DNA from: an uncultured archaeon
GTDB lineage: Archaea; Asgardarchaeota; Lokiarchaeia; Sigyniarchaeales; SOKP01
DNA length: 20,960 nt
Assembly (NCBI GenBank): GCA_964525635.1
Contig: CAZGJX010000083.1
Span: 1-20,960, forward strand
Direction of reading: 5' to 3'
How positions within the stretch are numbered: the stretch's first letter is position 1; every line of letters begins with the position of its first letter. Positions 1 through 10,970 of this stretch are shown piece after piece. The notes under the pieces were generated by a model. That model saw only the letters and a program-made list of their open reading frames with translations, was not told where the DNA came from and did not search any database. The position numbers and the translations under genes were made by a program.

Positions 1-219
1 TATTTAAATGTAATGCAGGAAAGGATTAATTAAAGTTTATCTTGTCGAACTTAAGCATATATATAACATATTTAAATAAATATTTAAATTATTAATCTAA
101 TTTATTTTTTCAAGGATTGTTAGAAAAGGAAAGAACAATGCAATACATATAAAAAGTAATAGTTAAAAAAAAAAAAATTTTTCCTAAGGTAATTTTCTGA
201 TTTTAAAAATAAAAAAAAA

Positions 220-1221
220 TTATGCTTTAGCTTCATTCAAAACCTTCAAGTCATTTTCACTTAATTTTATGTTCAGACTTTCTAAATCTTCATCTAAATG
301 TTCAATAGAACTGGTTGTAACTAGTGGTACTGAAGATGGTGCATTTTGAACTAACCAAGCGAATATAATTTGAATTCTTGTACAATCTTTTTCTTTAGTA
401 ATCTGATCTAAAGCTGCAAGTCTATTATCTAATTCTTTTGTATTGAAATCACCCCAAACACTATTATCTGCATCTTTTGGTATCTTTGCATAATTTCCAT
501 AAATAGTTGGAGTATAAGCTATAAGATTTATTTCTGGATTGTATAATATATAGTCTAATAATTCATTATTAGTATGAATTCCTCTTTTAGCAGGATCTGG
601 TCGTAGATATGTATGAAATTGTTGAATACAAGAATACTCTATCCAATTATTTTGCTGACATATATGTCTACTTCTTTCTAATCTCCATGTTCGATGATTA
701 CTGCATCCAATAGATCTAATGATTCCTTTTTCTATTAATTCATTGAAAGTCCCTAGGGTTTCTTTTAATGGTGTATTTAGATCTTCAACATGAGCATAAT
801 ATAAATCTATATAATCTGTTTGTAATCTTTTAAGGCTTCCTTTGATTGCATTATTAATAGCTTCTTTTGAAAGACCTTCACCATATGACCACCAATTATC
901 AATCATAGTGCCATCAGGATTTTTAATATCATTAATATTCTTTGGATTCGCACCAACTTTTGTAGCAAGAACAATTTCATCACGATTATCTCGTGATTTC
1001 ATCCAATTTCCAATGATAGTCTCACATTCTCCACCTTTGCCATTTGGATTCCAAACCGAATAATTATTAGAGGAATCTAGAAAATTTCCTCCAGCTTCAT
1101 AAAAATGATCTAAAATCTTAAACGCTGTTTTTTCATTAATTTTTGTCCCAAAATCAGTATTTCCCATACCTAATTGAGTTATTTTAATATCTGTTTTTCC
1201 CAATTGTACTTTTTTCATCAT
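220..1221 (-). CDS. Aldo/keto reductase (Tas/aryl-alcohol dehydrogenase-like)
   Basis: 333 aa. N-terminal LGKTDIKITQLGMG. Catalytic tetrad motifs FLDSSNNY (Asp, Tyr), LATK (Lys) and SLKRLQTDYIDLYYAH (His); IGCSN. AGAGG RBS upstream. Confidence 0.93.
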   Translation of the reverse strand: MMKKVQLGKTDIKITQLGMGNTDFGTKINEKTAFKILDHFYEAGGNFLDSSNNYSVWNPNGKGGECETIIGNWMKSRDNRDEIVLATKVGANPKNINDIKNPDGTMIDNWWSYGEGLSKEAINNAIKGSLKRLQTDYIDLYYAHVEDLNTPLKETLGTFNELIEKGIIRSIGCSNHRTWRLERSRHICQQNNWIEYSCIQQFHTYLRPDPAKRGIHTNNELLDYILYNPEINLIAYTPTIYGNYAKIPKDADNSVWGDFNTKELDNRLAALDQITKEKDCTRIQIIFAWLVQNAPSSVPLVTTSSIEHLDEDLESLNIKLSENDLKVLNEAKA

Positions 1222-1300
1222 AAAACCTCTTTTCTTTTTTTAAAAATTTAAAATTAATTTTATAATCAAAAGAAAAAATAATTTAAAATCAAATGAGATA

Positions 1301-1615
1301 TTATTCTTCGATTTTTTCTATTTTAAAAAAAACTGGTCGAACACCATCAATACAACATGTAATAAACATATTCTTGTTTTTAAACCACATACCAAAATTA
1401 CCATCAGCTATAAATGCAATAATTGACTTATAGATATCATTTTATGCTCAGGTACAAAATCCCTCAGGTATACCGCTAAAACCATCAGTAATAAATTCCT
1501 GTCCCTTTTTAAAATTTTCACATGGACCATAAGGTTTTAATTTTTCTGCAATGTATTTATCTGCTATGTCTCGATAATAATTTTTTCTCAACACTGTTAT
1601 TTTACAATTATCCAA
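1301..1615 (-). pseudogene. TIGR04076-family-like small Cys-rich protein interrupted by two in-frame stops
   Basis: Manual translation from TTG at 1615: MDNCKITVLRKNYYRDIADKYIAEKLKPYGPCENFKKGQEFITDGFSGIPEGFCT*A*NDIYKSIIAFIADGNFGMWFKNKNMFITCCIDGVRPVFFKIEKIEE*. The motifs CKITVL, GPCxxFxxGQEF, PEGFCx(W)A(W)xDI and CCxDGxRPVxFKIE match the family as I recall it. TGA at 1450-1448, TAA at 1444-1442, no frameshift. Confidence 0.85.
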
Positions 1616-1895
1616 TATTTTCCCAACCTAAGTTTTATAGAGAATTCGATTATTTTTTCAATTTTTATAAATTCATTTCTTGTTATTTTGTAAAGAAAAA
1701 TCATTTATAAATATAACTACTTTCATGGTTCCCTGCGTACTAATAAATTAGGGCTTGGTACTAAAATCGTATAATGTTTTAAATTAAGATTATTCTATCA
1801 GAAATTGAAAAGATTAATTAATTTCAAGTGATTTATTTATTGTATTTTTAAAATTAGATAAATTAATGACTTAGATTTCAAAAAATATAACATTA

Positions 1896-3296
1896 TTAAT
1901 CCCAATTATCAAGGGCATATTCCATATATTCAATTGCTTTTAATTCATTAGATTTTGCCGTATCTAATAAGGATATACCTTGATCTACAGTCTTATTATT
2001 TAATATATTTGAATCTTGTTCAAAATAAGGAAATAATTCCGAGTATTCTTCTAGATTATGTTTAATTTTCCTATAATGTTTATTTGCTTGATTAAGAAAT
2101 TTTTTTGAGGATTGATTAGGTGTGCTATTTGATAGCCAATCTAAATATTCTGAACATGTATTTTTTGCATCATTGTAAAATTTAGCGAGGAATGAATTAC
2201 CAAAAATATTAAAATTATTTAAGTGATAATTTTCAAGAATATTACTCCATTCTGAATAAGCATCTGGACCTGCTACAAAATTAGATTTTGCCACATTAAT
2301 ACCCTTTGCAAATAAAATTGCACGTTTTAAAGAATCCTTATTGATATCTCTATTTTCATTATTGGAAAATCGGTCTTTGAAATAAAAATAATGAAATATA
2401 TCTAAAGGTTGGAGTTCATCATATTTTATTGGAGTATCTTCTTTCCCAAATAATCTAAAATAGGTACTTACTAAATAACTATCTTTCTGATAACCCCGTA
2501 TAATACCATAAGCAGGAACTCTTAATCCCCACATAATTACTGGTGTATCATCTATTTGAATTAATTGTTTTATCTTCTCAAAAATTTCTTCTGCTAATTT
2601 CAAATCTTCCTCAACTAATTTTCGAGATCTTGGATTTTTCATTTTTATTCTAACATTAATGATATTCCAACCAAAATCCTCTGTTCCTTTTTGAATTAAA
2701 TCCCATGCCGTATCAGATAATAGACTTTCAGCAAGAAAAGAAATCCATCCTTTTTGGATATTTGTTATAAAACTATACCCCGATTGTCCACCTACATGTA
2801 TATAATTATATTTCATTCCTAAGGACATTAAAATTCCGGATACGGATGAGATATATGAATTCCATCCTCCTTGATAAATTGGATTTGAGCCCACCATTTT
2901 TCCTAAAGGACTTAAAGGTAAACGATTGTATTTAAATTGCTCACTTATATAATCCTGTTCAATTTGAAGTTTCATATGTGATCTTTGATAAGTTAAAACA
3001 ATATTTTTAACAAAATCTATTCCATCTATACTTATTTTATATAGTCCTCTTTGTGTTCTTTTAATTAATCCAGAATTGATCAGACTAGATATATGATGTA
3101 TCAAGCTAGTCTTTTTTAATTGAGTAGTATCTAAAAAAAAAGAAAATAGTTTGGGACTTAAGAGAAGTTCAGCAAGGATTTTAAGCCTAATTGAATTCCC
3201 AGCAGATTTTAATATATTTGATATATTATCAAGAGAATCAATTAATATATTATATATTTTTTTATTATCGATAATATTATCCAATGTATCATTCAC
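1896..3296 (-). CDS. ArsR-like winged helix-turn-helix protein fused to a large uncharacterised C-terminal domain
   Basis: N-terminal LKSAGNSIRLKILAELL...KTSLIHHISSLINSGLIKRTQRGLYKIS is an ArsR-type wHTH. The roughly 330-aa C-terminal region (GGQSGYSF...GPDAYSEW...LFPY) is of uncertain function. Confidence 0.75.
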   Translation of the reverse strand: MNDTLDNIIDNKKIYNILIDSLDNISNILKSAGNSIRLKILAELLLSPKLFSFFLDTTQLKKTSLIHHISSLINSGLIKRTQRGLYKISIDGIDFVKNIVLTYQRSHMKLQIEQDYISEQFKYNRLPLSPLGKMVGSNPIYQGGWNSYISSVSGILMSLGMKYNYIHVGGQSGYSFITNIQKGWISFLAESLLSDTAWDLIQKGTEDFGWNIINVRIKMKNPRSRKLVEEDLKLAEEIFEKIKQLIQIDDTPVIMWGLRVPAYGIIRGYQKDSYLVSTYFRLFGKEDTPIKYDELQPLDIFHYFYFKDRFSNNENRDINKDSLKRAILFAKGINVAKSNFVAGPDAYSEWSNILENYHLNNFNIFGNSFLAKFYNDAKNTCSEYLDWLSNSTPNQSSKKFLNQANKHYRKIKHNLEEYSELFPYFEQDSNILNNKTVDQGISLLDTAKSNELKAIEYMEYALDNWD

Positions 3297-3777
3297 TTAT
3301 AAATTAATTATAAACGGTTCAAGAATTTTATAAATTTATAATTTTTATGAAAAAATTACAATTTTTCTTAAAAACCTTTTTTTTTACTTATATCTAAGCA
3401 ATTATTTCTAATTAATTTATCCTAATTTTCCCGAATAATAGAACTAATTTTATAACCCTTTATAATAAAAGTATTTTTAGAATATTTTTTTTGAAATAGT
3501 CTAAATGAATTATTAATATATTTATCGAATATATTCAATGTTAGATATCGAATAAACTAAACTTATTATTACCAACTTAAAATTGCATATAATACTATTA
3601 TCATTCTTAAATTAGTTATTGTAAACAATATTATAGGAATATATATAATCTATTATTCTAATTTATAAAACAATATTCTAATTTAAATTCAATAATCTTA
3701 ATAAAATGATTAAAATCGGTTAAATAATCTTATTGAAATCAACAATTTTTTATCTATTTTTGCATTAATTTATAAAT

Positions 3778-4218
3778 ATGAGTAAACCTAAATATGAGAT
3801 AGTAAAGTGGGAAAGTTATGAAATAGGAGATTCTGCGTCTCATACAAAAACCATCACGGAAACAGATATAATTCTATTTGCAGGAATTACAGGAGATTTC
3901 AATCCATTACATATGGATGAAGAATTTGCAAAAATCCAGATGTTTAAAAAGCGGATAATACATGGAGCATTCAGTGTTGGATTAATATCAGCAGTTTTAG
4001 GCACTAAATTATTTGGTCCAGGAATTTTATATGGTTCCCAAAATGTTAAATTTTTAAAACCAGTCTTCATAGGTGACACTTTATCTGCTGTAGCAACTGT
4101 TAAAGATAAATATACAAAAAAGGAAGGAAAATTAAAATTTCTTAAAATTGAAACAAAAGTATATAACCAAAATGATGAAGTTGTTACTGATGGCGAAGCA
4201 GAAATAATCTTTATGTAA
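3778..4218 (+). CDS. MaoC/PhaJ-family (R)-specific enoyl-CoA hydratase/dehydratase (hot-dog fold)
   Basis: Hydratase-2 motif FAGITGDFNPLHMD (catalytic Asp/His), RIIHG and FLKPVFIGDT. Confidence 0.93.
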   Translation: MSKPKYEIVKWESYEIGDSASHTKTITETDIILFAGITGDFNPLHMDEEFAKIQMFKKRIIHGAFSVGLISAVLGTKLFGPGILYGSQNVKFLKPVFIGDTLSAVATVKDKYTKKEGKLKFLKIETKVYNQNDEVVTDGEAEIIFM

Positions 4219-4228
4219 ATTTGCTTTG

Positions 4229-4330
4229 TAATAATATTATTTTAAGTTTATTTTTTTTCTGTTTTTTTTTATTTCTTAATTTTTATTGGAGATTAGACAA
4301 CATTTTTTTGTTAATTTTTTTTTTTAATTT
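4229..4330. terminator. Probable oligo(T) termination region between the convergent MaoC and adenosyltransferase genes
   Basis: Several long T runs on the + strand just after the MaoC stop, and A-rich sequence further right (T on the - strand). Consistent with archaeal-type U-rich terminators. Confidence 0.4.
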
Positions 4331-4426
4331 TAGTTTAAATAAGCAAATTAAAGAAGAAAATTAATAATTAACAAAAACGGAGATGAGAAAGTTTTTACAA
4401 TAATATTATCAATTTTAGGCACAAAC

Positions 4427-4963
4427 TTAATACTCTATACCATATCTAGCAATAATCCCTTTAGCGGAATAATAATGTTTCACTTGTTTCATTTCTGTAA
4501 CTAAATCAGCTACTTCTTTCAATTTTGGATGAATTTTTTGTCCACCAGTAAGTATTAATTCAACCTTCTCAGGTTTTTTTTCAATCAATTTCATTACATC
4601 ATCAATAGAAACGACTCCCATCTCGACTGCTACTCCAATTTCATCCAAAATAATTATATCATATTCATTTTTATTAAATACACTCTCAGCGAAGTTTATA
4701 GCTTTTTTTCCTTGATCTAAGTCAATATCTCTTGGACTTTCAATAAGTTCTTTAGTTCCAAATTGCTTTACTTGAAAATAAGGATTCTGTTTTATTGCTT
4801 CGATCTCCCCATATTCCATATTACCTTTCATAAATTGAATCATAAATACCTTAAAACCATGACCAGTTGCTCGAAAGCCCTGACCAATAGCTGCTGTTGT
4901 TTTTCCCTTACCTCTTCCATAGTAGCATTGAATTAATCCATATTCTAATCTTTTTCTCATCAT
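4427..4963 (-). CDS. cobO: ATP:cob(I)alamin adenosyltransferase, CobA/BtuR/CobO type
   Basis: P-loop YYGRGKGKTTAAIG, IQFMKG, YDIIILDE, ADLVTEM...KH and C-terminal ARYGIEY. Confidence 0.93.
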   Translation of the reverse strand: MMRKRLEYGLIQCYYGRGKGKTTAAIGQGFRATGHGFKVFMIQFMKGNMEYGEIEAIKQNPYFQVKQFGTKELIESPRDIDLDQGKKAINFAESVFNKNEYDIIILDEIGVAVEMGVVSIDDVMKLIEKKPEKVELILTGGQKIHPKLKEVADLVTEMKQVKHYYSAKGIIARYGIEY

Positions 4964-5155
4964 TAAATACCTTTTTAATTCTATTAAATATTAATTTGGA
5001 GTTATTAATCATATTAATTTCAAATTTGATTTATTATTATTTAAGAATTATTTATTATTCAATCAAAATTTTATCGATTCTTTAATTATTTATAAGATGT
5101 TTCAAAAGTTATCATATATTAATCAATGAAAATTAAAATAAATTTAAGATAACTG

Positions 5156-6037
5156 ATGCCACAGACTAAATTAATGGATTTGGAAGAAGCTATATCCACA
5201 TACATAGATGATGGAGATCTAATTGGGATTGGAGGATTATCCTTTTGGAGAAAACCAATAGCTACTTGCAGGGAAATCATTAGACAAAAAAAGAAAGAGC
5301 TTTCAATCTGTACTTTTGTGGGAGGTTTAGATGTTGATATGCTAATTGCGGCGGGATGTGTATCGGAAATCAGATCTTCTTTTGTAGGAATGGAAGTATT
5401 TGGAATGGCCCCTAATTATCGAAAAGCAGTTCAAGAAGCTAGTATAAAAATTATTGAAGAAACTGAAGCTTCAATAGCATTGGGATTAAAAGCCTCATAT
5501 TTAAAAGTACCTTTTATGCCATTGAAAGGAATAATCGGAACAGATTTTCCAAAAATTAGAAAGGATATAAAAGAATTTGAAGATCCTTTAGGTAGTGGAA
5601 TTAAATTAATGGCTCTTCCAAAAATAGATTTAGATGTTGCTATATTACATGTTCCCTATGCAGATGAGTATGGAAATGGGAATGTGGCTGGAGCAGTTTG
5701 GTTAGATGATGATATGGCTAAGACGGCTAAAAAGACCATTATTACTTGTGAAAAAATAGTTGAATTGAATGATATGATAAATTTACCAGGAAAAGCACAA
5801 TTGCCTATGCAGACAACAAAAGCAGTAGTTAAAGTTCCATTTGGAGCTCATCCAACTTCTTGCTATGACAAATATACATTTGATGCCTTGCATATTCAAA
5901 AATATATGAAAATTGATTTTAAAGATTATAAAAAGAAATATATTAATTTAGATTCTCATACACAGTATTTAGAAGAAGTGGGAGGGTCGCAGATGATTTC
6001 AAATATTAATCTACAAACGAAAAATACTTCAAATTGA
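5156..6037 (+). CDS. Family I CoA-transferase-like protein, alpha subunit (GctA/CatI/IpdA-like)
   Basis: KLMDLEEAI...DGDLIGIGG, DMLIAAGCV, VPFMP, DVAILHVPYADEYGN and VVKVPFGAHPTSC are typical of GctA-type subunits. Confidence 0.9.
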   Translation: MPQTKLMDLEEAISTYIDDGDLIGIGGLSFWRKPIATCREIIRQKKKELSICTFVGGLDVDMLIAAGCVSEIRSSFVGMEVFGMAPNYRKAVQEASIKIIEETEASIALGLKASYLKVPFMPLKGIIGTDFPKIRKDIKEFEDPLGSGIKLMALPKIDLDVAILHVPYADEYGNGNVAGAVWLDDDMAKTAKKTIITCEKIVELNDMINLPGKAQLPMQTTKAVVKVPFGAHPTSCYDKYTFDALHIQKYMKIDFKDYKKKYINLDSHTQYLEEVGGSQMISNINLQTKNTSN

Positions 6038-6068
6038 ATTAAAAAAAAAAGAGAAGGATTAAAATAAA

Positions 6069-6944
6069 ATGAGTGAAGAATCAAAAGATTATTCAATAGA
6101 TGAAATGATGGCCGTTTTAATGGCTAGAGAAGTCAGAAATGATGATGTTATGATTGTTGGTGTTGCTACTCCAATGGTTTGGTCAGCATTTACTTTAGCA
6201 AAATTAACTAATGCACCAAACGCTATTTATCATTATATTATGGGAAATACTTTTGTCTTCGAACCATGCCAAGTTTCATTATTATATCTTGAAATGAATA
6301 CAACAAGGGCTTATCGATTTCAAAACTCTGGAGAATGTACCTTGGAATCACTTCCATCTGATAATTTGACTACAATAGAATTTTTTAGACCTGCTCAAAT
6401 TGATCAATATGGAAATACAAATAATATTTGTATCGGAGATTGGTATAAACCTAAAATTAGATTACCAGGATGTGCGGGGATAGCAGATTTCTCAATGTTT
6501 TATTCACGTGGGACTTTTTTATACACTCCAAGACATGATACTAGAAGATTTGTTCCAAAGGTTGATTTTATTTCAGGAGTTGGTTTTCAAAATGGAAACA
6601 ATCCTTTATGTGGAGGTGCAGGACCTCAATCGGTTATAACCAATTTGGCTTATCTAGACTTTGAAGAAAGAAGTAAAACTATGAGATTGGCATCTTTACA
6701 TCCAGATATTGATATTGAGACAATTATAAAATCAACTGGTTTTGATTTAATTATTCCAAATAAAATAAAGAATACAAAACCTCCTACTAAAAAAGAAATA
6801 AAATTATTAAGAGAAAAGATAGATCCATTAAATATAAGGAAGTTAGAAGTGCTTACTGGAAAGGAAAGGGAAGAATTATTAAGTATCATTATAGAAAAAG
6901 AATTAGCAATGACAAATAAAATTCCTTTATTGTTAAATTCTTAG
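6069..6944 (+). CDS. Family I CoA-transferase-like protein, beta subunit (GctB/CatJ/IpdB-like), canonical catalytic Glu absent
   Basis: YSIDEMMAV, LAKLTNAPN, AQIDQYGNTN, RLPGCAGIAD, FVPKVDFISG, VITNL and MRLASLHP. Starts 31 bp after the alpha subunit stop on the same strand. Confidence 0.9.
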   Translation: MSEESKDYSIDEMMAVLMAREVRNDDVMIVGVATPMVWSAFTLAKLTNAPNAIYHYIMGNTFVFEPCQVSLLYLEMNTTRAYRFQNSGECTLESLPSDNLTTIEFFRPAQIDQYGNTNNICIGDWYKPKIRLPGCAGIADFSMFYSRGTFLYTPRHDTRRFVPKVDFISGVGFQNGNNPLCGGAGPQSVITNLAYLDFEERSKTMRLASLHPDIDIETIIKSTGFDLIIPNKIKNTKPPTKKEIKLLREKIDPLNIRKLEVLTGKEREELLSIIIEKELAMTNKIPLLLNS

Positions 6945-6955
6945 ATATATATTTA

Positions 6956-7933
6956 TCAATCATCCTTTTTAATTTTAAGATGAATATGATAATATAATTC
7001 TTTAAGTTCATTATATATATCAAATTTGTTATCTATTAATTTTAAAGCAATATTATTCAATTCATTATTGTTAAAGATTCGTTCAAAAATTATTTTTTCA
7101 ATAGTATCAACCATAGATTCTTTAATTTTATACATATAGCGTTGTTTCATTTTTATTTTGATTTTTTCAGAAAGTTCCAAATATTCTTTATGTTCATATA
7201 TTTTTTCAATTAATTCATCAATACCTTCACCAGTTATAGAATTTGTCATCAAAACGGGAGGTCTCCAACCAGATTGAGTAATTGTAGAATCATCTAACAT
7301 AAGTTCAATTTGAACAGCAATGTCTTCTCCACCCAAATCTTTCTTATTTATATTGTATATCTCACCTATTTCAATAATTCCAGCTTTTTGAATTTGAATA
7401 GCATCACCATAACCAGGCACTAAAACTACAACAGTGCTATAAACTAAGTTATGGATTTCAAGTTCTGCTTGTCCAACACCAACAGTCTCAATTATTATTA
7501 TATCCATACCAAAAGCTTCATACAATAAAGTTATGTCGAATACTGCTCTGGAGATTCCCCCCGCATAACCACGAGTTGCTAAACTTCTTATAAAAACATT
7601 AGGATGACATGTAATCTTGGTCATTCTTATACGATCTCCTAGAAAAGCCCCACCACTAAAAGGTGATGTAGGATCAACAGATATAATTCCAACTTTTTTA
7701 CCATCTTCTGCTAGTGTCATTGCAACTTGACCCGTTAGAGTACTTTTTCCAACACCCGGAGAGCCTGTGATTCCTATAATATATGAATCATGTTTTAGAT
7801 TATTAAAATCTTTAAATATCTTTGATGCTGATGAGGGATCATTTTCAACCAAAGTTATCAATTTTGCAAGAGCAATTTTATCTTTTTCTTTAAATCTCTG
7901 ACATAATTGGTCAATATTATCGTTTGTATTCAA
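6956..7933 (-). CDS. meaB: MeaB/ArgK/MMAA GTPase chaperone for AdoCbl-dependent acyl-CoA mutase
   Basis: ALAKLITLVEN, Walker A GITGSPGVGKST, VDPTSPFSGGAFLGDRIRM, VFIRSLATRG, IETVGVGQAE, GDAIQIQKAG and NKKD. TTG start with GGGTG upstream. Confidence 0.96.
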   Translation of the reverse strand: MNTNDNIDQLCQRFKEKDKIALAKLITLVENDPSSASKIFKDFNNLKHDSYIIGITGSPGVGKSTLTGQVAMTLAEDGKKVGIISVDPTSPFSGGAFLGDRIRMTKITCHPNVFIRSLATRGYAGGISRAVFDITLLYEAFGMDIIIIETVGVGQAELEIHNLVYSTVVVLVPGYGDAIQIQKAGIIEIGEIYNINKKDLGGEDIAVQIELMLDDSTITQSGWRPPVLMTNSITGEGIDELIEKIYEHKEYLELSEKIKIKMKQRYMYKIKESMVDTIEKIIFERIFNNNELNNIALKLIDNKFDIYNELKELYYHIHLKIKKDD

Positions 7934-8136
7934 TAATAGGCACCCTGTGGTAAATATATGTGGTCTTTTTTAGTATATCACAATTTATGGTTTAATAGAT
8001 ATTACTTATCTAATAAATTAAGAAATATTAGGTTCAATAATTATTTTATGAAAATACTCATAGTTTAATTCTAATTTGAATTAATGACTTTAAATAAATA
8101 ATTAAATTGAAATAATATAGATCCAAAATACTGAAT

Positions 8137-8535
8137 TTACTTATTAATACTACTTGTAATAAAATCTACTATATCTTTTGTAATTGTTCCTGGACCATAA
8201 ATATTTGCAACACCTAATTCCTTTAATTTTGGAAAATCATTTACAGGTATTACTCCTCCTAAAATTATCAAGAAATTGTTTTTTACGCCTTTTTTATCTA
8301 ATTTTTCGATTAGTTGCTTCGTAAAAATCGTATGCGCTCCTGAATGGATACTCATCCCTATCACATCTACATCTTCATGAATTGCTGACTCGACTATTTG
8401 ATCAATACTTTGAAATCCCCCATAAATAAGCTCCATACCTGCATCTCTTAAAGCACGAGCCACAACTATAGATCCTCTGAAATGACCTCCGATTCCAGGC
8501 TTTGAGATTAAAACTCTTATTTTTTTTTCAGCCAT
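8137..8535 (-). CDS. Cobalamin-binding small subunit of acyl-CoA mutase (variant motif GGHFRG)
   Basis: KIRVLISKPG-IGGH-FRG, ARALRDAGME, EDVDVIGMSIHSGAH, LGGVIP and YGPGT. ATG at 8535 preferred over the TTG at 8541. Confidence 0.93.
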   Translation of the reverse strand: MAEKKIRVLISKPGIGGHFRGSIVVARALRDAGMELIYGGFQSIDQIVESAIHEDVDVIGMSIHSGAHTIFTKQLIEKLDKKGVKNNFLIILGGVIPVNDFPKLKELGVANIYGPGTITKDIVDFITSSINK

Positions 8536-9296: not shown

Positions 9297-10970
9297 TTAA
9301 ATTGCTAATGGAGGTTCCCAAATACTCCATATTTCTCTATAAATATCACATATTTCGCCAACAGTAGCTCCTTCTTTTGTAGCCTTCATTATTATTGGCA
9401 TTACATTTTCCTCTCGCTCACATACATTTCGGAGTTCATCTAATATTGTTTCTAGTTTATTATTATCTCTCTTCTCTTTTAATTTTTTAATTCTTTTTAT
9501 TTCAATATCCATCGCTTCTTCATTTGTTTTAAAAACATCGCAGATGGTATCATATGAGATTGGATATTTATTTACACCTAACATAATTTCAGCTCCATTC
9601 TCCATTCGTTTTTGTCTCTTATGAAAAGCATCTCTCATCTCTTTATATAACCATCCAGTTGATAATGCTTTATCTATAGTACCAATACTTTTAATTTTAT
9701 CCATATATTTCCATACTCTTTCTTCGATTTCATCAGTTAGCCATTCTACATAATATGATCCAGCTAGAGGATCAACAGTATTGGTAATACGTGATTCATT
9801 TTCTATGATTTGTTGAGTTCTGAGAGCTACTAATGCAGCTTGTTTAGATGGAAGGCAAATCGCCTCATCATATGAATTAGTATGTAATGATTGGCATCCT
9901 CCTAATGTTGCTTCAAGTGCTTGGATTGCAGTTCTAGCTATATTAATTTGAGGCATTTGTGCGGTTAGAGAACTTCCTGCTGTCTGTACATGAAATCTAA
10001 ATTGAAGTGATTTTGGATCTTTAGCATTATATTGCTCTTTTATTAATTTTGCCCAAATTCTCCTTGCTGCTCTATATTTTGCAATTTCTTCAAAAAAATC
10101 CTTATGAGCTGAAAGGTGAAAAGCTAATCTATTAACGAAATCATCAACTTTCCATCCTCTTTCAATTAAATTTTCAATATGAGAACATGCGCTGGAGAAA
10201 ACAAATCCTAATTCTTGAACTGCATCAATACCTCCTTCTCTGTAATTATAACCTGTAAAATTAATTGGGTGCCACTTAGGTACGTTTTTCATTGGTACAG
10301 TCCATTCAATAAAATCACAAGCTAAACGTAGTAAATGATCTGGAGGGACATTTTTATATGGGATATATCCAACAGTCATTGTTAAAATATCATTTTGCGT
10401 TGTACCCATAAGATTTTTAATATCATAACCCTTTATTTTTGCCATATTAAAATACATTGAACAAACTGGAGCAGAAGTAAATGGTTCAACAACTAAAGCA
10501 ACACTAATTTTATCAATTGGAATATCTTTAGTAAGTGCAAATAAACTATCTATACAATATAGAGGAACACCTGAAGTACCCACTTCTGGAGCACCATCTT
10601 TATTAGTTGGATCAATACCATTAAATGTTAAAGCATCAACAGCAGCACTATAACCTGTTTCTCCATGCTTATATAAGAATTTCCAACGCTCATTAGTCTC
10701 TTCGGGAGTGCCATGACCACTGAATAATCGCATTGTCCATACTCTTCCCCTATACATAGATGAGTAGGGCCCTCTTGTGTAAGGAGGTTCTCCAGGAAAT
10801 CTTACATTCTCAAGATAGTCTCCTTTTATATCTAGGGGAGTATATAATTTCTTAACAGGGATTCCTGAATCTGTTTCAAATCTCTGATCACTTTCTTTTG
10901 TATCTTTATGTTTTTTTTCCCATTCTTCTTTTTCTTGTCTTATTCTTTGTAAATAATCCTTATCATACAT
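9297..10970 (-). CDS. AdoCbl-dependent acyl-CoA mutase, large (TIM-barrel, substrate-binding) subunit; methylmalonyl-CoA mutase family, specificity unknown
   Basis: 557 aa. TDSGIPVKKLYTP, PGEPPYTRGPY, GTTQNDIL, FFEEIAKYRAARRIW, RFHVQTAGSSLTAQ, QSLHTNSYDEA, DPLAGSYYVE and ATVGEI. No fused B12 domain. Confidence 0.96.
   Translation of the reverse strand: MYDKDYLQRIRQEKEEWEKKHKDTKESDQRFETDSGIPVKKLYTPLDIKGDYLENVRFPGEPPYTRGPYSSMYRGRVWTMRLFSGHGTPEETNERWKFLYKHGETGYSAAVDALTFNGIDPTNKDGAPEVGTSGVPLYCIDSLFALTKDIPIDKISVALVVEPFTSAPVCSMYFNMAKIKGYDIKNLMGTTQNDILTMTVGYIPYKNVPPDHLLRLACDFIEWTVPMKNVPKWHPINFTGYNYREGGIDAVQELGFVFSSACSHIENLIERGWKVDDFVNRLAFHLSAHKDFFEEIAKYRAARRIWAKLIKEQYNAKDPKSLQFRFHVQTAGSSLTAQMPQINIARTAIQALEATLGGCQSLHTNSYDEAICLPSKQAALVALRTQQIIENESRITNTVDPLAGSYYVEWLTDEIEERVWKYMDKIKSIGTIDKALSTGWLYKEMRDAFHKRQKRMENGAEIMLGVNKYPISYDTICDVFKTNEEAMDIEIKRIKKLKEKRDNNKLETILDELRNVCEREENVMPIIMKATKEGATVGEICDIYREIWSIWEPPLAI

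Follow-up and report, generated by a model that had tools for sequence, protein, structure and literature searches.

Which reaction does an acyl-coenzyme A (acyl-CoA) mutase catalyze when its active-site residues fit no studied member of its family? The question is raised by a gene at positions 9297-10970, minus strand, of a stretch of 20,960 nucleotides (contig CAZGJX010000083.1 of assembly GCA_964525635.1; the whole stretch analyzed is called the window below) from an uncultured archaeon of the Sigyniarchaeales (Asgardarchaeota, Lokiarchaeia). These Asgard archaea are syntrophic, amino-acid-fermenting relatives of eukaryotes. The specificities known for acyl-CoA mutases are few, namely those of methylmalonyl-CoA mutase (MCM), isobutyryl-CoA mutase (ICM) and IcmF, ethylmalonyl-CoA mutase (ECM), 2-hydroxyisobutyryl-CoA mutase (HCM) and RCM, and pivalyl-CoA mutase (PCM), and to our knowledge each new one discovered has opened up a pathway or a route for biotechnology. 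Literature searches on Asgard archaea and mutases found no paper specific to the clade described here. With moderate confidence, our results point to an active, split, adenosylcobalamin (AdoCbl)-dependent carbon-skeleton mutase of an Asgard-specific group, which would act on a short, non-carboxylated acyl-CoA.

The gene encodes the large subunit of an acyl-CoA mutase

9297-10970, minus strand: acyl-CoA mutase large (substrate-binding, TIM-barrel) subunit, 557 aa; PF01642, TIGR00641; signature F83/E162/Y202/N242/H285

A single open frame of 557 amino acids occupies the minus strand of this interval; a reading of the plus strand was ruled out by many in-frame stops. The protein matches the Pfam family MM_CoA_mutase (PF01642) over its whole length with 553 bits (cut-off 22.1) and the large-subunit domain model TIGR00641 with 551 bits (cut-off 303.8). 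It stays below the cut-offs of the equivalog models for MCM (NF006944, 444.6 bits against 876) and IcmF (NF045497, 230 bits against 1500). An AlphaFold2 model built on 120 sequences reached a predicted local distance difference test (pLDDT) score of 94.8. Its best structural match in Foldseek was HCM (4r3u; template modeling score (TM) 0.95, root-mean-square deviation 1.6 A, 36% identity), and MCM (1req) was matched with a TM of 0.92. HCM was likewise the best sequence match among solved mutases in HMMER, at 418 bits (3.7e-124) compared with 338 bits for MCM.

The motifs for cofactor and adenosine are intact, with QND at residue 192, HVQTAG at 327 and LHTNSYDEA at 362. The motifs with the residues compared below lie at residues 81 (RLFSGH), 158 (ALVVE), 192 (QNDILTMTVGY), 240 (GYNYREGG) and 281 (RLAFHL). 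We conclude from domain, fold and motifs that the protein is a member of the AdoCbl-dependent acyl-CoA mutase superfamily. A non-catalytic, MutA-like beta chain was ruled out: the cofactor motifs are kept, the locus has its own small subunit, MeaB and adenosyltransferase, and MutA chains score only 102 bits.

Active-site residues differ from those of every characterized mutase

Residue correspondences were taken from HMMER alignments to P. shermanii MCM (1req), the Y89F mutant (5req), human MCM (2xij) and HCM (4r3u), and from an L-INS-i alignment of 145 mutase domains. In P. shermanii numbering, Phe83 of the Asgard mutase occupies the position of MCM Tyr89, Glu162 that of Asn168, Tyr202 that of Arg207, Asn242 that of His244 and His285 that of Phe287. 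The placement of Tyr202 is the same in the HMMER alignments to three structures and in the 145-sequence L-INS-i alignment. The segment following QNDIL is one residue longer than in classical mutases, and a two-sequence MAFFT alignment puts Tyr205, not Tyr202, in the Arg207/Gln column; under either alignment the column holds Tyr, and in none does it hold Arg or Gln.

In MCM, Tyr89 and Arg207 bind the substrate carboxylate, and His244 assists the rearrangement by a hydrogen bond to the thioester carbonyl, as known from studies of H244 mutants. The Asgard mutase shares with MCM (1REQ, human 2XIJ) the fold, the domain, the QND, HxQT and LHTNxYDEA motifs, Tyr243 and Glu247, but the Tyr89/Arg207 clamp and the catalytic His244 are all replaced and the MCM pathway partners are absent from the host genome. 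The ICM signature consists of Phe at the Tyr89 position, Gln at the Arg207 position and a retained His244. Like ICM and IcmF (4XC6, 5CJT), the Asgard mutase has Phe at the Tyr89 position and no Arg207, so that an uncharged substrate would be expected. However, Phe is the only part of that signature found in it: Gln is replaced by Tyr or Phe and His244 by Asn, and further differences from ICM are Asn168 to Glu, Lys202 to Thr and Phe287 to His. PCM carries Leu at the Tyr89 position; in a comparison without a PCM sequence, Phe83 of the Asgard mutase was invariant in 129 orthologs.

HcmAB of Aquincola tertiaricarbonis (4R3U) resembles the Asgard mutase in its split large and small subunits, its MeaB-type chaperone and an acidic residue near the top of the barrel. 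That residue stands on strand 3 (Glu162) in the Asgard mutase and on strand 2 in HCM, whose Asp117 hydrogen-bonds the substrate hydroxyl. At the key positions HCM has Ile, Asp117, Gln and His, whereas the Asgard mutase has Phe83, Ala110, Tyr202 and Asn242. The alignment to 4r3u pairs rqIagf of HCM with rlFsgh, stDfd with aaVda and kEymaQ with tmtvgY, and the HCM determinants are not found in the Asgard protein.

When 14 divergent orthologs were compared with 47 classical rows of the alignment, 12 positions proved to be fixed in the Asgard clade while at least 80% of classical rows hold another residue. Four of them are 100% conserved in the classical rows, whatever their substrate signature: Asn168 (Glu162 here), Lys202 (Thr197), His244 (Asn242) and an Asp (Ser142). 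The replacements go beyond the known specificity pair 89/207. The loss of His244 suggests either that its task has passed to a neighboring residue, His285 for example, or that the substrate calls for another kind of assistance, and Glu162 together with Asn242/His285 likely represents a re-wiring of specificity or catalysis. Asn244 and His287 were considered as a coupled pair; they are not consistently associated among the 145 representatives, and a relocated histidine is a conjecture.

A preliminary description of this DNA had matched the Tyr89, Asn168, Arg207, His244 and Phe287 positions by eye, and each of these correspondences agrees with the HMMER alignments. The motifs it quoted all occur at the residue numbers it gave, and the core that it called intact (QND, HVQTAG, LHTNSYDEA) is so, its motifs being invariant in orthologs. 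It had named Gln or Arg at position 207 as an outcome that would speak against it; proper alignments place Tyr there. Its central claim, a pocket that matches no known specificity signature, was borne out against the MCM, ICM, HCM and PCM residues.

The replaced residues are conserved throughout an Asgard clade

Orthologs 66-89% identical to the mutase were found in more than 100 genomes when 400 genomes of the phylum were searched, after which identity drops sharply to at most 48%. Most of the host's family (f1) has them, as do families f5-f7 of its class, a single f3 genome and family f21. Proteins of 556-559 amino acids that are 79-92% identical to the mutase form more than 120 clusters at 90% identity; all carry Asgard labels, which in NCBI read Lokiarchaeota/Promethearchaeota, Hod-, Thor- and Odinarchaeota.

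Across 129 orthologs, which are 66-92% identical, no variation is seen at F83, E162, N242 and H285, nor at Q192-N-D, H327, Q329, H363-T-N and the D368-E-A of LHTNxYDEA, and 295 of the 557 positions reach at least 97% conservation. In 118 of the 129, residue 202 is Tyr; the other 11 have Phe, so the Tyr202 hydroxyl is not essential. The ortholog from the same genus is 89% identical and keeps all signature residues. Decay to a pseudogene was ruled out by the intact frame, the length shared with orthologs and the invariant signature. Collectively, these comparisons indicate that the gene is under strong purifying selection and belongs to a distinct orthologous group, mainly confined to Lokiarchaeia-type Asgard archaea.

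Two observations concern single members of this set. In family f13 the gene occurs in only 2 of 31 genomes (G031 and G039), on short contigs and at 79-82% identity, the level seen within f1, which suggests binning contamination or recent transfer. Two orthologs (G172:C123:1136-2836 and G146:C202:552-2252) match over 1701 bases instead of 1671 and contain two in-frame TAA codons; this may reflect an insertion of 30 bases, a short intervening sequence or a flaw in the assembly.

Small subunit, cofactor genes and the host genome

8137-8541, minus strand: B12-binding small subunit, 134 aa; PF02310, TIGR00640 136 bits
6956-7933, minus strand: MeaB G-protein chaperone for AdoCbl loading; PF03308 270 bits, TIGR00750 298 bits (cut-off 240.75)
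4427-4963, minus strand: ATP:cob(I)alamin adenosyltransferase of the CobO/BtuR type, which makes AdoCbl; PF02572 186 bits

The window thus encodes a small subunit and two proteins for supply and loading of the cofactor. The ortholog small subunits read KPG[IVA]DGHWRG at 74 of 78 loci, including the same-genus genome G159, and the motif was not found at the other four. The Trp of this clade-wide DGHWRG distinguishes it from the DGHDRG of classical small subunits and serves as a subfamily marker, which shows that the small subunit co-diverged with the large one. In the window copy, KPGIGGHFRG, the His that ligates cobalt remains, but Gly takes the place of the Asp in the base-off/His-on motif DxHxxG. 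GGHFRG was seen at none of the ortholog loci, and only the window copy has lost this Asp. Each of the two codon changes needs two substitutions, which speaks against a simple sequencing error.

Marker genes put the completeness of the genome at 100%. Its only mutase genes are the window copy and a paralog with the ICM signature (contig C128, 1483-3536, plus strand); most related genomes give two to three mutase matches. The paralog is 43% identical to the window mutase, carries RQFAGF, KEYIAQ and GYH, and is paired with a DGHDRG small subunit of its own; no MeaB gene was found within the flanks examined. The carboxyltransferase family PF01039 had no match in the genome, and the methylmalonyl-CoA epimerase model TIGR03081 gave only 21.9 bits (cut-off 115), with internal stops. 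The methylmalonyl-CoA pathway is thus not encoded in this complete genome, and the database name 'methylmalonyl-CoA mutase' is very probably wrong. Elsewhere in the genome lie two sets of 2-hydroxyacyl-CoA dehydratase genes.

The Asgard clade stands apart in the family tree

A HMMER scan of 1.8 billion representatives returned 18,203 mutase relatives, many representatives of which have non-classical residues at positions 89, 207 and 244. The unassigned diversity of the superfamily is therefore large, the Asgard clade being one of many such clades. The best match outside the clade, the metagenomic sequence P0121, is only about 46% identical to the window mutase.

Rows of the trees, none of them a characterized ECM, PCM or HCM sequence, were assigned to classes by signature residues only: Y/R/H as MCM-like, F/Q/H as ICM-like and I/Q/H with Asp117 as HCM-like. 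In a FastTree phylogeny of 145 rows the Asgard clade has a stem support of 100 and a branch of 0.39, and lies within a 19-row group (support 100) together with P0121, P0141 and P0134/P0215/P0207. All MCM-, ICM- and HCM-like rows fall in one half of that tree, from which this group is separate. An IQ-TREE phylogeny of 68 rows recovered a corresponding 16-row group (SH-aLRT, the Shimodaira-Hasegawa-like approximate likelihood ratio test, 99) across the midpoint root from all MCM-, ICM- and HCM-like rows, among them the HCM-signature sequence P0139. Forcing the Asgard clade together with the ICM-like rows made the tree worse by 51.6 log-likelihood units, which was not significant in the approximately unbiased (AU) test (p 0.131).

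The nearest named relatives, both unstudied, are from Ca. Methanolliviera (L084) and a metagenome-assembled genome of the Desulfobacteraceae (L088). Together with P0121 these 'YNYRE / FHL' mutases share with the Asgard clade Phe at 89, Asn at 244, His at 287 and FH[VI]QTAGS. They differ from it in having Thr, Gln or Pro instead of Glu162 and small residues at 207, and in L084 and L088 QND is changed to EGD. The setting of L084 also differs from that of the Asgard loci. Positions 1-8526 of this locus (Ca. Methanolliviera sp. GoM_asphalt) carry three large-subunit genes, of which the one at the locus start is truncated; every one is accompanied by a B12 small subunit, and a BcrAD/HgdC-type activator and two HGD-D genes of a 2-hydroxyacyl-CoA dehydratase directly adjoin them. 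Among these mutases is the nearest named relative of P0121 (57% identical).

The preliminary description had inferred a new mutase subfamily whose substrate lacks the MCM-type carboxylate. The replaced clamp and the absence of MCM pathway partners from the complete genome support this view, with the substrate itself inferred. It had also asked for conservation of the substitutions and for a position outside characterized clades: F83, E162, N242 and H285 do not vary among orthologs, and the clade is separated from the MCM-, ICM- and HCM-signature rows with supports of 99-100, subject to the AU result for a sister relation to ICM-like sequences.

Genes linked to the mutase

5156-6037 and 6069-6944, plus strand: GctAB-like pair; best PDB matches GctAB 1poi, IpdAB 6co6/6con, AibAB 5mzw
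3778-4218, plus strand: MaoC-type (R)-specific enoyl-CoA hydratase, a possible pathway partner with weak linkage; PF01575 96 bits
12577-13368, plus strand: short-chain dehydrogenase/reductase (SDR), 3-oxoacyl/3-hydroxyacyl reductase-like, a possible pathway partner with weak linkage; PF00106 171 bits
11144-12451, minus strand: DUF362 protein directly upstream of the mutase; PF04015 105 bits; 3 of 50 loci
1896-3296, minus strand: open reading frame of 466 aa without Pfam or NCBIfam match; not near the mutase in other loci examined

Neighbors were counted within 10 kb of the mutase at 50 ortholog loci. The B12 small subunit is present at 49 of the 50 and MeaB at 41. An acyl-CoA dehydrogenase (ACAD) follows at 18, the electron-transfer flavoprotein subunits EtfB and ferredoxin-domain EtfA at 16, GctAB-like subunits B and A at 16 and 12, a helix-turn-helix regulator at 15, a metallo-beta-lactamase (MBL)-fold protein at 10, the adenosyltransferase at 9 and MaoC at 4. 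SDRs occur at five plus four loci: five have the type found in the window, and in four loci of the distant family f21 a different SDR lies in the mutase operon. The MBL-fold protein is often directly upstream of the mutase on the same strand.

The best solved relatives of the ACAD are butyryl-CoA dehydrogenases (Bcd) of bifurcating Bcd-Etf complexes (4l1f, 5ol2), and its best NCBIfam model is the acryloyl-CoA reductase AcrC, with a score below the cut-off. An operon of ACAD, EtfB and EtfA, the last with an N-terminal 2x[4Fe-4S] ferredoxin domain, runs divergently to the mutase at L035, L037, L039 and 13-15 more loci.

The GctAB-like pair is likely a pathway partner of the mutase. The catalytic Glu54 of GctB (VESG) aligns with a Tyr in the beta subunit of the window, and a classical CoA-transferase was rejected on this ground. 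The solved relatives include the hydrolase IpdAB and the decarboxylase AibAB, and the pair probably acts on a CoA ester as lyase, hydrolase or decarboxylase and not as a CoA-transferase. A nitroreductase-family gene is often found between or beside its two subunits.

Discussion

We propose the following mechanism for the Asgard mutase. The small subunit would bind AdoCbl through its His, and homolysis of the Co-C bond would yield the 5'-deoxyadenosyl radical, which would abstract a hydrogen from an acyl-CoA threaded through the barrel, after which the thioester group would migrate 1,2. Since the Tyr89/Arg207 clamp is replaced by Phe83 and Tyr/Phe202 and MCM pathway partners are absent, the substrate is predicted to be an uncharged, short acyl-CoA (about C3-C5), one that would differ from the substrate of the ICM-signature paralog in the same genome. 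Its straight-chain isomer would probably be exchanged with the neighboring butyryl-CoA-dehydrogenase-like ACAD/EtfAB.

As a rough guide to the substrate class, a plain alkyl pair (iso-/n-butyryl or a C5 pair) is a tentative candidate, a hydroxy-substituted substrate is doubtful, and any other type is rather unlikely. A plain alkyl group would suit the hydrophobic side chains of Phe83 and Tyr/Phe202 as well as the Bcd-like neighbor, but it leaves the invariant Glu162 and His285 and the ICM-type paralog unexplained. The hydroxy-substituted substrate would fit the acidic barrel-top residue, by analogy with Asp117 of HCM, the closeness to HCM and the dehydratase beside the Methanolliviera sister mutases.

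Several results weigh against the proposal of a split mutase for a short, non-carboxylated acyl-CoA. The ACAD/Etf linkage is seen in only about one third of loci. The replacement of His244, Asn168, Lys202 and the Asp may mean that the chemistry differs more than a substrate switch needs. A sister relation to ICM-like sequences was not rejected by the AU test. Finally, the loss of Asp from the small subunit, in this genome alone, could weaken this particular copy.

Of the alternatives, the one that survives best, although we consider it unlikely, is a hydroxyacyl-CoA mutase like HCM, RCM or lactyl-CoA mutase, interconverting 3-hydroxybutyryl- and 2-hydroxyisobutyryl-CoA or 3-hydroxypropionyl- and lactyl-CoA. 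Here Glu162 would hydrogen-bond the hydroxyl as Asp117 does in HCM, and the bulky Phe83 and Tyr202 would fill the space of the missing methyls. HCM is the best match in sequence and structure (418 against 338 bits for MCM; TM 0.95), but this may only reflect a shared split-subunit lineage, and the HCM determinants are absent (Ile90 to Phe, Asp117 to Ala110, Gln208 to Tyr). The invariant acidic residue at the barrel top suits such a reaction; Glu162, however, replaces an Asn168 that is universal in classical mutases whatever the substrate, and may serve another role. The window contains genes for MaoC and a PhaB-like SDR, and in family f21 SDRs are part of the mutase operon, but SDRs and MaoC are rarely linked to the mutase, at 9 and 4 of 50 loci, respectively. 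Further points in its favor are the 2-hydroxyacyl-CoA dehydratase and activator adjoining the sister mutases in Ca. Methanolliviera, and the neighboring ACAD and EtfA, which score best against acryloyl-CoA reductase models, below cut-offs. A natural HCM homolog with lactyl-CoA mutase activity has been described (PMC11599936).

It is quite unlikely that the enzyme is a second isobutyryl-CoA/n-butyryl-CoA mutase isoenzyme, whose pocket drifted while the substrate stayed the same. The Phe at the Tyr89 position as in ICM, the hydrophobic Tyr/Phe at 207, the Bcd-like ACAD with EtfAB next door at 16-18 of 50 loci and the failure of the AU test to reject a grouping with the ICM-like sequences (p 0.131) are all consistent with this idea. 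However, free trees place the clade elsewhere with supports of 99-100, and a paralog with the F/Q/H signature coexists in the genome, most related genomes having two to three mutase matches. Gln198 and His244 are replaced, and four universal residues changed and were then frozen, which suggests a new function more than drift.

Still less probable is AdoCbl radical chemistry on an acyl-CoA without a 1,2 thioester shift (elimination, or migration of an amino or hydroxyl group), or an impairment of this copy. The replacement of His244, Asn168, Lys202 and the conserved Asp, the deviation of the wider 16-row group even in QND (L084, L088), and the unique GGHFRG instead of DGHWRG would agree with such a reading; but the adenosine and cobalamin motifs are present in full and the barrel is intact, no pyridoxal phosphate enzyme, the partner of an aminomutase, was seen in the neighborhood domain matches, and the large subunit is 89% identical to its same-genus ortholog with all signature residues kept. 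An MCM as annotated, binding the carboxylate non-canonically, has the database names and the passing of the TIGR00641 subfamily-domain model on its side and is highly improbable, given that none of Tyr89, Arg207 and His244 is retained, an acidic Glu has come in, NF006944 gives 445 bits against a cut-off of 876, and neither carboxyltransferase nor epimerase scores above cut-off in the 100% complete genome.

Taken together, what is new here appears to be a well-defined, strongly conserved subfamily of a known enzyme family, which stands out by its host lineage, its conservation and its replaced universal residues. Few metabolic enzymes of Lokiarchaeia-type Asgard archaea are as strongly conserved as this clade, yet it is labeled 'methylmalonyl-CoA mutase', and metabolic reconstructions that use this label infer a propionate/methylmalonyl-CoA pathway, which the host genome, at least, is unable to run. 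As a natural mutase that lacks His244 and has other residues at the positions of Asn168 and Lys202, it also bears on how the rearrangement is catalyzed. A bolder scenario, which we hold to be quite improbable, is that the clade acts in nature as a mutase on a small polar acyl-CoA whose hydroxyl or amino group is bound by Glu162 (a lactyl/3-hydroxypropionyl-CoA or an aminoacyl-CoA pair), in a B12-dependent C3 route, or else performs a different AdoCbl radical reaction on CoA esters, marked by the loss of His244, Asn168 and Lys202. If true, the C3 route would link propionyl-CoA, acrylyl-CoA, 3-hydroxypropionyl-CoA and lactyl-CoA with the acryloyl-CoA-reductase-like ACAD/EtfAB and the MaoC hydratase, and would bypass the methylmalonyl-CoA pathway that the host genome lacks. 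The identity of the substrate would clarify how these Asgard archaea handle short and branched acyl-CoAs.

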